64,000 bases of DNA, taken from assembly GCF_964213995.1 (NCBI RefSeq), contig NW_027590173.1, forward strand, positions 434,001-498,000. The letters run 5' to 3'. Position 1 is the first letter of the stretch; each line of letters starts with the position of its first letter. Position numbers and translations under genes: made by a program. Source of the DNA: Mustelus asterias. Taxonomy: Eukaryota. This document shows positions 5,285-61,538 of the stretch, piece after piece. The notes under the pieces are model-generated. The model did not search any database, had not been told where the DNA came from, and saw nothing but the letters and a program-made list of their open reading frames with translations.

Positions 5285-5650
5285 TCCACCTCTGCAATCA
5301 AAATATTGAAAGATTTTGCTTGCTTTGCCTTTTGAGGAAGGGAGTTCCATCGACACACAACCCTCTGAGAGAAAATAATCTCGCCTCATCTGTGCCTCAA
5401 ATGAATGACCCTTTATTTTTAAACAGTGACCCCTCATTCTAGATTCTCCCACAAGAGGAAATATGCTCTTCATATCCATCCTGTCAAGACCACTCCGATC
5501 TGTAAAGTTTCAATCAAGTCGACACTTACTCTTCTAACCTCTCGCCTGCAAATTTATTCCCTCCAACATTTCCTCATGAGACAACCCGCTCCTTCCTGGT
5601 ATTAATCCCGTAAACCTTCTCTGAACTGTTTCAAGCACATCTACATATTT
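5285..5650 (-). mobile_element. CR1 3' ORF2 fragment
   Basis: IFPLVGESRMRGHCLKIKG motif in ORF 5282..5479(-). Confidence 0.7.
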
Positions 5651-5926
5651 AGCTGAAGCTAAACGAAGCATGTTATTTATTGGGAAAATTATTATATATT
5701 ATCTTTATTTGTTCTCGCAAGTAGTCTCACAGTACAAGGTTAAAGTCCATCTGGGTTTTTTGGTGGCATGAGCTTTCAGCGCGCTGCTCCTTGTTGGAGT
5801 GTAACCGGGGACAACTTTGATTGGATGTAATGTGACCAATGGGAACAAGATGTAAGGGTCAGCTGACCCAAAAAAGCATGGAACCAATCACAGAGTGATG
5901 TAATAGTCAGCTGATGAGCTGATTCA

Positions 5927-5960
5927 TTCTTGGCCTTTTGGCTGAGATCAGGTGTAGTAT
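5927..5960 (+). pseudogene. U2 snRNA 5' fragment (about nt 6-39, ending just after the branch-point recognition sequence GTAGTA)
   Basis: TTCTtGGCCTTTTGGCTgAGATCAgGTGTAGTAT, 31/34 identical to vertebrate U2 as recalled. Confidence 0.85.
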
Positions 5961-6041
5961 GGTCGGCTGCGCTTGGTTGAGGTCATTGGGTTGCACTGAA
6001 GCTTCGTGTGTTTCATATGAAGCAATTTTTTTAAAGCGGCA

Positions 6042-6062
6042 TCTCGGCCTTTTGGCTAAGAT
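6042..6062 (+). pseudogene. Second U2 snRNA 5' fragment (about nt 7-27, stem-loop I)
   Basis: TCTCGGCCTTTTGGCTAAGAT, 21/21 identical to U2 as recalled. Confidence 0.8.
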
Positions 6063-6283
6063 GCAGATGAGCTCAAGTCTTGGAGGAGGAACCTCCCCCT
6101 TCTCCAATCAGCTTAGCTCATGTAGATCAGGCCCAGGACAGGGTGATTTGGTCGCTCGCCCTGTCTTGTTAGCCTGGATCTGAAATGTCTCAACTTGTTG
6201 AGACTCTGAATTGGATTTGATTTGATTGAATTGGAAAAGTATAAAAAAAATATATGCCCTGTTTGTGAACCCAATTCTCCACT

Positions 6284-6318
6284 CACCTGAGGAAGGAGAA
6301 GTGCTCCGAAAGCTCGTG
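6284..6318 (+). ncRNA. Minimal hammerhead ribozyme (Penelope pLTR)
   Basis: CAC-CTGAGGA-A-GGAG-AAGTG-CTCC-GAAA-GC-T-C-GTG. Stem I (CAC/GTG) differs from the 1752 copy but still pairs. Confidence 0.72.
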
Positions 6319-6439
6319 CTACCAAATAAACCTGTTCGACTTGAACCTGGTGTTGTGAGACTTCTTACCGTGCCCACCCCAGTCCAATGCCGGCATCACG
6401 ACATCTGATTTGTTCTAGTATAAGGTGTAAATTTTACAT

Positions 6440-8150
6440 TGAAGACACGTCAGGTGAAGACAGCTGAGTGGAATGTGCGGTTTGTCTCATGTGGGGAGTC
6501 TTGGATGCGGCCAGTGTCTTGAATGACCACATGTGCAGGAAGTGTTCCCAGCTGCAGAATCTGGAGCTCCAGGTTTCGGACCTTGAGGAGCAGCTGGACA
6601 GACTGTGATGCATTTGAGAGGCTGAGAGTTATGTGGACAGCACATTTAGAGAGATGGTCACAGCAGAGCTCAAGGTACTAGAGGAAAGAAGGGAATGGGT
6701 GACCACTGAGCAGTCCAGGAAGAACAGGCATGTGGAATCATAGAATAGAATTATTGAATCCCTACAGTGCAGAAGGGGGCCATTCAGCCCATCGAGCCTG
6801 CACCAATAACCATCCTACCCAGCCCCTATCCCCATAACCCCAGGTATTTACGCTGCCAATCTCTCTAACCTACACATCTTGGGGCACTAAAGGGCAATTT
6901 AGCATGGTCAATCCACCTAACCTGCACATTTTTGGACTGTGGGAGGTAACCAGAGCACCAGGAGGAAACCCACACATAAACCGGGAGAATGTGCAAATTC
7001 CACACAAACAGCCATCCAAGGCCAGAATTGAAGCCGGGTCCCTCATGCTGTGAGGCAGCAATGCAAACCACTTTGTCACCCTGCCACCCAAACGGGTACT
7101 GCAGGAGTCCCCTGGGATCCTAGTCACGAACATGTCTTCCATTTTGGATGCAGATGAGGGTGCTGGTCAGCACCCCAGAGGAGTGCAGTCAGAGCCAAGA
7201 TTCTGGCACCACAAGCATCTTGCTTGAACAGGTGGGGAAGAAGAAGACAGGAAGAGCAATAGTGATAGGGAATTCATCAGTCAGTAGAGCAGACAGGCAT
7301 TTCTGTGGCCAAGGATTTGACTTCAGGATGGTGTGTTATCTCTCTGGCCAGTGTCAGGGATGTCACTGAATCGCTGCAGGACATCCTGAAAGAGGAGGGT
7401 GATAGGATAGAGGTTGTGATACATATAAAAGTAGCAGAAAGGAATAAGGGCAGAAAGGAGGGAGAGTGATGGATAATACAGGAGAAGGAAGTAACACCAT
7501 GTTGGATAGAAGGAGATTAACAAGTACTATGAAGAATGTCCAGACAGGTTTCCAATGTATGTAAACACAAAGTGTGATAAATAAGGTTGATGAGCTTGAA
7601 GGACCAAGAGAAATGTGGGAATCTGATGCGAAGGCAATGACAGAAATGTGGCTTAAAGAGTGAAGACAGGGTGCTGAATATTCAAGAATTGTGTTCAGAA
7701 AGAGATAGATAAGAGAAAAGGAGAGGTGGGATGACAATACTGACCAGGGAAGTCATTGTAGTGTTGGAGAGTGGAGATGTCCTTGAGGTGACAAGGACAC
7801 AATCCAGTTGTTTAAAGTCTGAAATCAGTGTAAGGGGAACTATTGAGAAAAATTGTGAGGGTCAAAATTAATCTCCATTTGCAGAGGCAAGGATTAATCA
7901 AGGATAGTCAGCATGGCTTTGTTCGGGGGAGATCATGTCTAACAAATTAGATTGAATTTTTTGGGGAGTTGTCTAGCCTTGTAGGTCAGGGCAGTGAGTT
8001 GATGTCGTCCACATGGACTTCAGTAAGGCATTTGACAATGGGAGACTGGTCAAGAAGATATGAGCCCATGGGATCCAGTATAATTTGGAAAATTGCATCA
8101 AAACCTTTCGTAGTGGCATAAAGCAGAGGGTGATGGTCACAGGTTGCATG
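6440..8150 (+). mobile_element. Decayed CR1 (ORF1 and ORF2 remnants with internal deletions)
   Basis: RAIVIGNSSVSRADRHFCG...RMVCYL esterase-like ORF1 motif; ATGGACTTCAGTAAGGCATTTGAC (MDFSKAFD) at about 8012. Confidence 0.75.
6735..7089 (-). mobile_element. V-SINE/HE1-like tRNA-derived SINE
   Basis: tRNA-like head, central TTTGCACATTCTCCC...GGTTTCCTCC domain and CR1-like tail. Confidence 0.85.
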
Positions 8151-19604: not shown

Positions 19605-22205
19605 TACAGTAACAGAGACTGACAGTTAATTGCATACATTATTAATAGATAGCTAGGGATTTATTTCCACAATCACACAGTAACAGATTGAGAGAGAGTT
19701 AATTCCACATTCACACTCAGTAATAGTTTGAGAGGGAGTTAATTACACATACACAGTAATTGGCTGAGAGAGTGTCAATTTCACACTCTCACACTGTAAC
19801 ATATTGAGAGAGAGTTATATCCACACTCTCACACAGTAATAGATTGAGAGAGAGTTCTTCCATCCTCACACACAACAATACAGTGAGAAACAGTTAATTC
19901 CACGCTCGCACACAGTGCAATAGATTGAGAGAGAGTCAATTCCACACTGACACACAGTAATAGATTGAGAGTTAATTCCACACTGAAACACAGTAATAGT
20001 TTGAGAGAGAGTTAATTACACACTCACACAGTGATAGATTGAGAGATTATTCATTGCACACTCGCACACAGTAATAGATTGAGAGAGATAATTCCACACT
20101 CTCTCACAATTCAATTCAGAGGGTGTTAATTCCACACACACACACTAACAGATTGAGATGGTTAATTCCACACTATCACATAGTAATAGATTGAGAGAGA
20201 GTTAATTCCACACACTCTCAGGAATAGATTGAGAGGGAGTTTATTCCACACTCATGCATAGTAATAGAACAAAGAACAATACAGCACAGGAACAGGCCCT
20301 TCGGCCCTCCAAGCCCGTGCCGCTCCCCGGTCCAGGATTGAATCCTGAAACCAGGATCCCCGCCCAATTTTCCAGCCTATCTACATACCAATATCCTATC
20401 CACCGAGCTGTCCCTCACAGCTACGATGCTTTGTTCATTACAACCTATTAACTCACCCCCACCCCCCTATTCCAGACCATGTGATCTCCAGGGAGAGGCG
20501 AAAACCCAGAGTGAAATAGATGGGAGTTAATTCCACCCTCTCACACAGTAATAGATTGAGAGAGAATTAATTCCACACTCACACTCAGTAATCGATTGAG
20601 AGAGAGTTAATTCCACACACTCTCAGGAATAGATTGAGAGGGAGTTAATTCCACACTCGCACCTAGTAATAGATGTGAGTTAATTCCACCCTCTCACACA
20701 GTAATAGATTGAGAGAGTATTATTTGCACACTCGCACTCAGTAATAGATTGAGAGATAGTTAATTCCACACTCACACTCAGTAATAGATTGTGAGAGAGT
20801 TAATTCCACACTGACAGAGCAATAGATTGAGAGAGAGTTAATTCCACACTGACAGAGCAATAGATTGAGAGAGAGTTAATTCCACACTGACAGAGCAATA
20901 GATTGAGAGAGAGTTAATTCCACACTGACAGAGCAATAGATTGCGAGAGAGTTAATTCAACACACACACAGCAATAGATTGAGAGAGCTACTTCCACAAT
21001 CACACAGAGGAATAGATTGAGAGAGAGTTAATTCCACACACACGCACACATGCACACACAGTAATAGGATAGAGTTAATTCCACACTCACATACAATAAT
21101 AGATTGAGAGAGTTAATTCTGCACAGTAATCGATAAAGTATTAGAAGAGAGTCATTTCCACACTCAAACACAGTAATAGAGTGAGAGAGTTAATTCTACA
21201 CTCACACACTAATAGATTGAGAGAGTTAATTCGACACTCATACACAGTAATAGACTGACAGAGGGTTATTTACACACTCACACACCTTAATAGATTGAGA
21301 GAGAATTAATTCTACACACAGTAACAGATTGAGAGAGTGATAATTCTATACTCTCACATAGTAATAGATTGTCAGAGAGTTACTGCCACACTCTCACATA
21401 GTAATAGATTGAGAGAGAGTTTCTGCCACACTGACACACAGGAGTAGATTGAGACAATTATAATTGCCGCTCTCACACACTAATGGATTGAGAGAGTCAA
21501 CTCCACACACACACACAGTAATAGATTGAGAGAGAGTTAGTTCCACACACACCACACACACACTCACACAGTAATAGATTGAGAGTTAGTTCCACACACA
21601 CACATACACACACACACTCACACAGTAATATATTGTCAGCTCGTTAATTCCACACACTCTCACACAGTCATAGATTGAGAGAGAGTTAGTTCCACATACA
21701 CACACACACAGTAATATATTGTCAGCTAGATAATTCAACACACTCTCACACAGTAATAGATTGAGAGGGAGAGTTAATTCCACACTCTCACAGTAATAGA
21801 CTGAGAGAGAGAGTTAACCACACACTAATAGATTGTCAGTGTTACTTGCACACTCTCTCACAGTAATAGATTAAGATAGAGTTAATTCCACACCGACACA
21901 CAGCAACTGATTGAGAGAAAGTTAATCCCACACCCACACACACTGTTAGATTGAGAGAGTTTTAATTCCACACACACACAGACAGTAATAGATTGTTAGA
22001 AGGTTAATTCCACCCAAACACAGCACTAGATTAAGATAGAGTTAATTATACACTGAGACACAGTAATAGATTGAAAGAGAGTTAATTCCACACTCTCACA
22101 CTAATAGATTGAGAGTTAATTCCACACCCATACAGTAATAGATTGAGAGAGTTGATTCTTCACGCACACTCGCTGATAGATTGAGAGAGTATTCATTGCA
22201 CACTT
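19605..22205. repeat. About 36-bp minisatellite (GAGAGAGTTAATTCCACACTCACACAGTAATAGATT)n, roughly 65 variable units
   Basis: Direct tandem repeats with GA/CA slippage; a homogeneous sub-block of near-identical units at about 20790-20960. Confidence 0.95.
20266..20515 (-). mobile_element. 5'-truncated copy of the extended CR1 3' UTR of the 31.6-36.5 kb element, inserted in the minisatellite
   Basis: Near-identical reverse complement of about 36259-36502. Confidence 0.9.
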
Positions 22206-24700
22206 ACACTGCTTCTAACGTGTTTACATCTTTCTTTCGATAAGGGGACCAGTACTGTATACAATCCTCCAGATGTGGTCTCACCTCGTCCTGTTCAAGT
22301 GAAGCATCAATTCCCTACAATTCCTCACATTAAGCAATAACATTCTATTTGCATTCCTAATTATTTGCTGCACATCTATATTAGCCTTTTCTGATTCATG
22401 CACTAGGAACCCAGAACCAGAGGGTTTTCACACAGAGTTGTGAGTGTCTGGAACGAGCTGCCAGAGGCAGTCGTAGAGGTGGGTACAATTTTGTCTTTTA
22501 AAAAGCATTTAGACACTTACATGGGTAATATTGGTATAAATTGGAATTGTAGGGAATTGGGGCGGCACGGTAGCACAGTGGTTAGCACTGCTGCTTCACA
22601 GCTCCAGGGACCTGGGTTCGATTCCTGGCTTGGGTCACTGTCTGTGTGGAGTTTGCACATTCTCCTCGTGTCTGCATGGGTTTCCTCTTGGTGCTCCAGT
22701 TTCCTCCCACAGTCCAATGATGTGCAGGTTAGGTTGATTGGCCATGCTAAAATTGCCGCTTCGTGTCTCGAGATGCGTAGGTTCGAGGGATTAGCGGGTA
22801 AATATGTCGGGATAAGGGGGTAGGGCCGGGATGGGATTGTGGTCGGTGCAGACTCGATGGGCCAAATGGCCTCTTTCTGCACTATAGGGCTTCTATGATT
22901 CTGAAGGGATACAGGCCGAATGCAGGCAATTGAGACTAGCTTAGTGGTATAAACAGGGCAGCTTGGACAAGTTGGGCCAAAGAGCTGTTTCCATGCTGTA
23001 AACCTCTATGACTCCAAGGATCCTATCAGCCTTATTAATAACTGTTTCAACTTGCCTTGCCCGCAACAGAGCATTATACACTTGAAACCCAAGTTCTCTC
23101 TGCTCCTGTACTTCCCCTAAATGCTGTACCATAATGGGCATATTTTCGCCTCATGTTTCTTGTACCAAAATGCATTTCCTCACATTTTGCTGCATTGCAA
23201 TTCATCTGCCAGGTGTCTGCCCATTTGGGCAACTTGTCAATGTCCCTCTAAAGTCACTCAGCATCATTCTCACAATTCACTATTCTCCCCAGCTTGGTAT
23301 TGTATGCAAATTTTGCCCTTTACAGCGATCTCTAAATGGTTTATATAAATCAGAAAAAGCAAGTGTCCCAACACTGATCCCTGGGGAACACCACTTTCAA
23401 CTCGTCTCGAGTCTGAGAAATGCACATCTGTACCCAACCTCTGTTTCCTATCTTTCAGCCAACTTCTAATCCATGCTGCCAAGGACCCATCAATCACAAA
23501 CATTTCTAATTCGCTCACCAACCTGCCATGTGGCACCATATCAAATGCTTTCTGATAGTCCAAATATACAACATCCACGGCACTACCCTCATCCAATGTC
23601 TGTGTCTCATCTTGCCAAACATGACCTGCCCTTGAGAAAATTATGTCATCTGCCGAGTATGAACTTATATTTCTCTGAGAGTATATCTATATCTTATTTC
23701 ATACTGTGGCCTCCATCTGTTTTCTCACTATTGATGTCCAGCTGAGAGGTCTGTAGTTTCCTGGGGTATCCTTTGCCCCTTTCCTGAAAAACAGCATTAC
23801 ATTTGCAATCCTCCAATCCCATGGGACTAATTCTGTGTTCAAAGAGGCCAGGAAGTTTCTGTCAATGGCTGCGCAATTTGCTCCCTCACCTCTCAGCAAT
23901 CTACGATGCATCCAGTCTGGACCTGGTGACTTCTCTACTGAGAGTGCTGCCAGAGTTTTAGTGCCTCTTCTTTATCTATCACTATACTGTTCAGTTACTG
24001 AGCACCCATATTTTCAACAAGGCCATTGTCACATTGTTTAATTTTGTAAAGACAGAAGCACCGTACTCATTTAGTATCTCTGCCATACCCTCTGCTTCAG
24101 TGACCAGTTTACCCTGCTCGTCCCTTATGAGCCCCACTTTATCCTTCACTAACCTTTTCACATGTATATGTTTGAAGAACATTTTACTATTTGTTTTAGC
24201 GCAGCCTGCTATCCTTTCCTCATGCTCCCTCTTAGCCTCCCTTATTAAAGCCTTAGCCTCTCTCCTGCATTTGAACTGTTTTTCCTGATTTCTATTGCTA
24301 TTATTATTCCAGCATGCATCCTATGTCTCTTTTTTCTTCCTTATTTTCTCATCAATATCCTTAGACTCCAGGATACTCTAGCTTTGGATGCCGTGTATTT
24401 ATTTCTGGTGGCTATGTGCCTGGCTGGCACCCTATTCATCTCAACTTTGAAAGTCTCAATTTTTCATCCACTGTTTCATCCTCGCAATTTGCCTCATTTG
24501 CCACATTTTGCCAATTCACATAACCTATCTGTTTCCTTTTGTAGCCTCCTTACGTACACTTTGCAATTAATTTCTTGTCAATCTTTATGCTGTCAGCAAA
24601 TTTAACAACCGTATCTTCAGTCCCTTCATCAAAGTCATTTTTATAAATTGTAACAAGTTGTGGCCCTGGTACAGATACACCATTCGACATATCCTGCCAC
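22205..24700. mobile_element. Nested decayed CR1 fragments (mostly minus strand; plus-strand 3' piece at 22420-23015 split by a SINE)
   Basis: DVVYLDYQKAFDMVPHGRL, GVPQGSVLG and DWRIANV...PGNYRPLS motifs. Confidence 0.85.
22560..22902 (+). mobile_element. Full-length V-SINE/HE1-like SINE
   Basis: A-box-like GGTAGCACAGTGG, B-box GGTTCGATTCC, V-domain, CR1-like tail ending TTCTATGATTCT. Confidence 0.9.
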
Positions 24701-61455: not shown

Positions 61456-61538
61456 TACCAGGAGTGGGGTTCGAACCCACGCGGACATATGTCCATTGGA
61501 TCTTAAGTCCAACGCCTTTACCACTCGGCCATCCTGGT
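61456..61538 (-). tRNA. tRNA-Leu(UAA), apparently intact (83 nt)
   Basis: ACCAGGATGGCCGAGTGGTAAAGGCGTTGGACTTAAGATCCAATGGACATATGTCCGCGTGGGTTCGAACCCCACTCCTGGTA; stems pair, long variable arm, T5 terminator 6 nt downstream. Confidence 0.95.

Follow-up and report, generated by a model that had tools for sequence, protein, structure and literature searches.

How did two pieces of U2 snRNA come to lie inside an inverted repeat in the genome of the shark Mustelus asterias, and what kind of element do they belong to? The question is raised by positions 5793–6250 of the window (the whole stretch of DNA analysed, 64,000 nt, positions 434,001–498,000 of contig NW_027590173.1), which a first-pass annotation had described as one structured cassette with two U2 heads, carried inside a Penelope fold-back. 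That annotation left a choice between a dimeric U2-headed SINE and the UTR of a U2-targeting LINE, possibly captured in trans, and added that a transcript could mimic U2. We found that a dispersed U2-headed family in 5927–6250 is real, and we examine below its relation to the surrounding repeats, to the U2 genes and to a LINE that inserts into them.

Three nested elements at the locus

The motifs reported for 5793–6250 are all in their places in the sequence: ATTGG at 5820, CCAAT at 5836 and 5884, both U2 heads, the hairpins, the T7 run, the inverted arms (5719–5792 and 6293–6366) and the 9-bp duplication (starts at 5707 and 6408). They do not, however, form a single cassette, since three elements are nested in 5707–6416 and only 5927–6250 is the unit. 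On the plus strand, the left copy of the duplication (5707–5715) is followed by the left arm of an inverted pair (5716–5791, minus strand), which is interrupted by the first 135 bp of a solo LTR-like repeat of ~308 bp (5792–5926, plus strand). Then come the U2-headed SINE-like retroposon itself (5927–6250, plus strand), the right arm (6251–6407, plus strand), a high-copy repeat with a fixed 3' end, and the right copy of the duplication (6408–6416, plus strand). Both arms and the LTR-like repeat lie outside the SINE.

This partition comes from a search of the 3.68-Gb genome with 5793–6292, in which 40 of the 5,358 first-look candidates were scored. Among these 40, seven matches are full-length duplicates of the window locus and the remaining long matches span only about 5927–6250, which marks that stretch as the dispersed unit. 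The segment 5793–5926 alone has 1,699 genome candidates and forms the start of the ~308-bp repeat; TG...CA ends, 5-bp duplications (seen at two dispersed loci) and a TATA box directly after the CCAAT boxes in uninterrupted copies identify the repeat as a solo LTR. The three CCAAT/ATTGG boxes thus belong to it and have to be taken out of the cassette.

Seven paralogues (L038–L044) have the window's flanks, the inverted arms and the whole LTR and lack the U2-headed element, holding instead 235 extra bases at its place. These empty sites give an order of events: inverted pair, LTR, element with a 235-bp loss, regional duplication. The window copy was the last to arrive, landing in a site already made of an LTR within a fold-back, with 235 bp lost there before the region was duplicated. 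Capture in trans by Penelope is refuted by the same loci, because in all seven close paralogues with a complete LTR the fold-back is present and the element is not. The window locus (5600–6450) has been segmentally duplicated at least 14 times, seven times with and seven times without the element (on C141, C223, C85, C102, C103 and C130), and in four more copies (L045, L047–L049) another repeat interrupts the LTR. The six dispersed arm loci examined all lack a U2 head. The arms, which we take to be Penelope-like, have related DNA at two of eight GIY-YIG loci (78–79% identity), so the label is weakly supported. Both the Penelope context and the CCAAT boxes are incidental to the element.

Elsewhere in the window, six histone 3' stem-loops on both strands (11951–63207) and a tRNA at 61456–61538 point to a histone gene region, and tandem arrays are found at 19643–22209 (~40-bp period, 64 copies) and at 1–523 (36-bp period).

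Structure of the U2-headed element

The unit 5927–6250 is a ~325-bp non-coding, U2-headed, A-tailed retroposon with no adjoining ORF. Its first head (5927–5960) corresponds to U2 nt 6–39 (91% identity over 34 nt) and ends at the Keno/Utopia site, U2 nt 38/39. It is followed by an anti-head strand (5966–5993), predicted to pair with the head in the hairpin 5931–5993 through many G-U pairs, and by a hairpin of variable length and the T7 run (6001–6032; hairpin 6001–6023, T7 at 6026–6032). The second head (6039–6064, match 6042–6062) is a piece of U2 stem-loop I, predicted to form an extended free hairpin and nearly invariant across subfamilies. The body consists of three hairpins (6067–6204, individually 6067–6121, about 6123–6174 and 6187–6204), whose stems are kept and whose loops vary between subfamilies, and the 3' tail (6176–6250) is made of TTGA-like repeats and an A tail and bears a weak end-anchored likeness to the 3' UTR of a Keno-like LINE. 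All these parts read on the plus strand. The window copy belongs to the commonest, and likely the youngest, subfamily, from whose majority sequence it differs by 4.0%; its truncated 5' end falls at U2 nt 6, and no TSD flanks it.

The Rfam U2 model scores 42 bits on the element (E 7e-7, below the gathering score of 46 and with a forced 3' alignment), and there is no Rfam match at the gathering score; a U2 gene or variant with its full structure, including Sm site and 3' stem-loops, would score above that cut-off, and the element does not. No tRNA, 5S or 7SL part was found in the element by Rfam at E up to 10. The element contains a T4 and a T7 run; the latter is incompatible with Pol III read-through, and the T runs argue against Pol III transcription of the element. 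The T7 run resembles an Sm site and lacks the G of what we take to be the Sm consensus, and the similarity between the element's U run and the U2 Sm region is not significant (alignment p 0.26). Derivation of the body from reworked U2 was also considered and gave unconvincing results in eight alignments (p 0.02–0.6).

Family size, ends and subfamilies

A 24-mer from the 3' hairpin has 4,736 exact matches in the genome, evenly on both strands (reversed control, 0), so the element has at least that many copies. The 24-mer is present in 34 of 47 copies reached by other routes, a biased set whose retention rate suggests a total of ~6,500. Ends were studied in a position sample of 70 loci, about the first 75 24-mer matches on contig 1, 65 of which gave 81 copies. 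The 3' end is reached by 80 of these 81; 62 start within U2 nt 1–15, including 17 that start at nt 1, and 21 stand in tandem. TSDs of at least 8 bp flank 29 of 60 solitary copies, compared with 0–3 in five mismatched-flank controls. The flanks of the 23 best dispersed loci, inspected by eye, mostly bear no relation to one another or to the arms, and no shared non-U2 5' extension was noticed among the copy flanks inspected in the same way. Many dispersed copies, common ends, TSDs and the lack of an ORF thus bear out the suggestion of a dimeric U2-headed SINE-like family.

Six subfamilies cover 126 of 132 unique near-full copies (window paralogues reduced to one). Their sequences are 312–333 nt long with an A-rich tail at the end, the mean divergence of copies from their own majority sequence is 2.7–4.8%, and in all six the head ends at the insertion site, U2 nt 39. 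Contigs from sequencing runs of four other organisms hold the family at high depth, in three of the four mostly as alleles of likely older subfamilies.

U2 genes and a probable partner, a Keno-like LINE

The U2 genes form a major array on C24 and a variant array on C21 that is 87–90% identical to the major U2. The element and a U2-headed, Keno-like Tx1 LINE insert at the same base, U2 nt 38/39: among 25 places where an A tail meets U2 nt 39, 20 involve the LINE 3' UTR, three the element and two other sequences, and a second search pattern found six element ends at this junction. These six, counted with an exact pattern, stand against thousands of element 3' ends, and most copies are dispersed; their targets show no evident motif beyond a leading A (by eye). 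One C24 U2 gene contains an element, a LINE and another element in a row. The LINE encodes a zinc-knuckle ORF1, APE, RT and zf-RVT domains and carries its own U2 head, and the 3' flank of its insertions is the target published for Keno (PMC6136364, PMC4640811) and Utopia. It is on account of this flank that we call the LINE Keno-like.

In the C24 array, LINE insertion is accompanied by a 20-bp duplication, and the TSD lengths of LINE and element are similar; the LINE copy examined there has its ORF2 in three pieces. This array (44.81–44.94 Mb, L106) consists of 15 repeats of a ~8,035-bp unit, and every unit holds an intact U2 as well as a near-full Keno-like LINE within a U2 fragment. Away from the arrays the two elements also occur together. 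The LINE 3' UTR has 94 exact matches, 72 of them outside U2 arrays, and of the 50 of these 72 ends that were examined, 19 have an element within 80 bp downstream on the same strand and three directly upstream, where chance adjacency would be about 1e-4 per LINE end by a rough estimate. The common insertion base and this co-insertion away from U2 genes support the proposed link to a Keno-type LINE.

The further proposal that the element is the UTR of such a LINE was rejected, as BLAST of the element against the Keno-like LINE matches the U2 head only and reveals no common tail. An end-anchored alignment of the last 72 nt with the LINE 3' UTR gave weak similarity (p 0.008–0.11 over the six subfamilies, uncorrected), and the LINE 5' UTR does not match the element body (p 0.21).

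Several single loci deserve mention. At L079 (1380–1500), a Tx1-like 3' end precedes a complete U2 gene by 9 bp instead of lying at nt 39. At L105 (C1991), U2 nt 39 directly adjoins the A tail of a Penelope-like piece, and other RNAs may thus have been inserted at the Keno site. At L146 (C12), an element with its own A tail and a 13-bp TSD sits inside a 26-nt U2 fragment (nt 34–59), which is either a minimal U2 target or a transduced piece. At L172 (542–1573), an element and a truncated LINE abut without any spacer, a fusion that may stem from a template switch.

Donor copies in U2 genes and transduced array DNA

Element copies within U2 genes stand in register behind U2 upstream DNA and have a single head. 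The variant array (C21, 28.05–28.08 Mb; L108, L109) has a ~448-bp unit with its own upstream DNA and is heavily invaded by the LINE; it is the source of every transduction seen. Of 21 matches to its U2 upstream DNA, 12 lie outside the array. These 12 continue into the element in eight cases (seven loci, one of them only a stub) and into the LINE in the other four; an intact U2 follows in no case. For the major array on C24, all 22 matches to the U2 upstream junction lie inside arrays and none is dispersed. The two U2 upstream regions share only a weak likeness (p 0.04), with no further promoter elements identified.

Transduced U2-array DNA accompanies four subfamilies. On C14, C6 and C7, a TSD encloses a block of U2 DNA and element whose last part is the element's A tail, and on C1 the TSD-flanked block has the element in its interior. 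Two loci (L254 and L260) start within U2 nt 6–12 and include U2 nt 39–48, which are absent from the element. These nucleotides are a feature of real U2 genes alone. RNAs from element-bearing U2 loci were thus retrotransposed, in four subfamilies. The blocks carrying spacer DNA derive from read-through RNA, not from initiation at +1. The donor copies thus lay in U2 genes, whose promoters likely drove their transcription, and we infer that most copies arise from U2-locus RNAs. The U2-resident copy measured in the C21 array is not evidently the current master, because it differs from its subfamily sequence by 4.9%.

Stacking of copies

Of 32 element–element junctions, 24 join different subfamilies and eight the same one. 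All 24 mixed junctions fit one order, with the likely younger copy 5' and no pair of subfamilies found in both orders, under a subfamily ranking that was set after some tandem members had been seen. Where a TSD extends into the downstream head, it shows the upstream copy to be the later arrival. Dating tandem pairs by divergence failed, the upstream copy being less diverged in just 19 of 32, and the stacking order therefore rests on the order of subfamilies. Some insertions lie inside old heads (L228, L115, L187), two are followed downstream by a truncated LINE that has no head (L233, L236), and at L113 a LINE block is found on the 3' side of an older copy; set against each other, these groups allow site re-use to be either guided by the head or intrinsic to the site.

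RNA fold and the branch-point sequence

The stretch 5920–6260 has a strong predicted fold (z –7.8; 0 of 100 shuffles as good), and the six subfamily sequences behave likewise (z –5 to –10). The sense strand is favoured, with an MFE of –142 versus –106 for the antisense strand and 17 G-U versus 0 A-C pairs. In the largest hairpin (5931–5993), absent from the earlier motif list, the first U2 head is predicted to pair with the sequence that follows it. Changes between subfamilies in the head/anti-head helix keep pairing in 6/9 cases, versus 28/132 among copy-private mutations (Fisher p 0.006). No comparable excess is seen in the other helices (4/6 versus 111/206, p 0.69), and all helices together give p 0.06, so that no covariation signal extends beyond the head helix. 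At the DNA level, plain alignment does not reveal reverse complementarity between head and anti-head (p 0.18 and 0.48), since the helix depends on G-U pairs.

The retention of GUAGUA in the first head had suggested mimicry of U2. In the predicted fold, the anti-head covers five of the six bases of the branch-point recognition sequence (5954–5959); the predicted folds of five subfamilies pair five to six of these six bases, and in the sixth the last base is changed. The predicted pairing argues against U2 mimicry and for masking of the head.

Comparison with known systems

The closest likeness is to SINEU-1, -2 and -3 of crocodilians and their partner Tx1-Mar (Kojima, 2015; PMC4494074), which that paper describes as found in no lineage outside crocodilians. 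As there described, SINEU shares with the shark element a U2-derived head with repeated U2 pieces (nt 1–39 in full shark copies, with a second piece inside), a non-coding unit of less than 500 bp with a poly(A) tail, internal T runs, no Pol III promoter (no tRNA, 5S or 7SL head) and tandem copies sandwiching a TSD. In both, the Tx1 partner is deduced from common targets and itself has a U-snRNA head. The shark copies likewise have TSDs (29/60 solitary copies) or truncations (235 bp missing at the window copy), and they represent a multi-copy unit of common structure rather than independent chimeras (4,736 matches, six subfamilies). Unlike SINEU, the shark element is from another lineage, its partner is a U2-targeting Keno-like LINE, and its targets are U2 genes, older copies and mixed flanks, whereas that described for SINEU is a Mariner (Mariner-N4_AMi; PMC4494074). 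Only in the shark are donor copies visible inside U2 genes and is a head-masking strand predicted. We place the element with the SINEU type on these features, not on body sequence. We found no report of a shark U2-headed SINE in the literature, in a search outside which lay subscription journals, Repbase Reports, Dfam and supplements.

The co-resident LINE resembles Keno, as published, in its APE and RT and in its insertion before U2 nt 39 with the published 3' flank (PMC4640811, PMC6136364), and differs in being also widely dispersed, often upstream of SINE heads. The element itself has no ORF1 or ORF2 and matches by BLAST in its U2 head alone; it is not a Keno end.

R2 has short non-autonomous derivatives in 28S rDNA. 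Like R2 and these derivatives, the shark element is a promoter-less retroelement in a multicopy RNA gene and is likely co-transcribed with it. It differs in that the host gene is a Pol II snRNA gene whose sequence stays on the element as a head, in that the element does not look like a simple internal deletion of the LINE, and in its thousands of copies outside the host gene. Co-transcription of R2 with 28S rDNA is cited in PMC4494074.

Proposed mechanism and alternatives

The reading that we prefer, with a probability of about 0.8, is that of a dispersed U2-headed retroposon that also resides in U2 genes at nt 38/39, is likely transcribed from U2 promoters and is likely copied by the Keno-like LINE. 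An element copy in a U2 gene would give a Pol II chimeric RNA whose head is nt 1–39 of the host gene. The LINE protein would reverse-transcribe this RNA from its A tail at the target nick; the anti-head strand would fold over the head and keep the RNA out of splicing; and older copies would become preferred landing sites, new copies being placed on their 5' side. A bolder version, which we offer tentatively and with the odds somewhat against it, is a self-renewing parasite of snRNA genes: a promoter-less SINE that would nest in U2 genes, take the host's first 39 nt in each cycle and fold this head away, sparing splicing, with the scattered heads serving as decoy pads that divert the LINE and later copies from real U2 genes and stack these newcomers in chronological order.

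Most copies might instead come from dispersed masters of the same SINE that are transcribed from promoters in their flanks and gain or renew their U2 heads when reverse transcription switches template to U2 snRNA, a model discussed for SINEU in PMC4494074; the U2-resident copies would then be of minor importance. More than 99% of copies do lie outside U2 genes, the second, internal head shows that heads can be added, the L172 copy is fused to a truncated LINE without a spacer, and the array-resident copy measured is not the least diverged. We nevertheless consider this unlikely: all six subfamilies have a head that stops at the insertion site, whereas the ends produced by template switching in SINEU-2 vary, as described in the same paper, U2-array DNA was transduced with four subfamilies, and no common non-U2 5' extension was noticed among flanks inspected by eye. 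It is very unlikely that the element, though transcribed from U2 loci, is mobilised mostly by a different LINE that depends on poly(A), be it L1 or some other Tx1 family, and that the Keno-like LINE only shares its hot spots. The lack of a clear common tail by BLAST, dispersed targets with no evident motif past the leading A (by eye) and the 94 exact LINE 3' UTR matches against thousands for the element would fit such an arrangement; the same U2 nucleotide, similar TSD lengths, the 19/50 adjacency and the weak end-anchored tail similarity all speak for the Keno-like LINE.

The sequence might be a structured small RNA with a function, or mimic U2 in splicing, and have left retrocopies as well; this would account for the strong sense-strand fold, the invariant U2 head, the presence of the family in runs of four other organisms and the Sm-like U run between hairpins. 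We judge it highly improbable, since the predicted fold ties up the branch-point sequence, the G of the Sm consensus is missing from the U run, the succession of subfamilies and the TSDs are those of a retroposon, and no dedicated gene was seen outside the U2 insertion sites. Hardly credible at all is the original choice between a cassette captured in trans by Penelope and the UTR of a U2-targeting LINE. The window copy does lie between inverted arms with a 9-bp duplication and without a TSD of its own, but seven paralogues have the same flanks, arms and whole LTR and no element, the flanks of the 23 best dispersed loci mostly show no kinship with one another or with the arms (by eye), and neither an adjoining ORF nor a match of the LINE 5' UTR to the body (p 0.21) was found.

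Implications

How snRNA-headed SINEs are transcribed was left open in the Discussion of PMC4494074 and, as restated in PMC5786205, remained so there. Donor copies in U2 genes and transduced array DNA provide a specific, testable answer from a second vertebrate lineage: borrowing of the U2 promoter and of LINE enzymes would explain how promoter-less elements are copied. The RNA design, judged by its predicted fold, likely conceals a recognition sequence of the spliceosome. In this shark a site-specific LINE and its SINE have spread beyond a small target, the fixed order in which they re-use older sites dates the subfamilies, and the young copies with empty paralogues are usable as markers.
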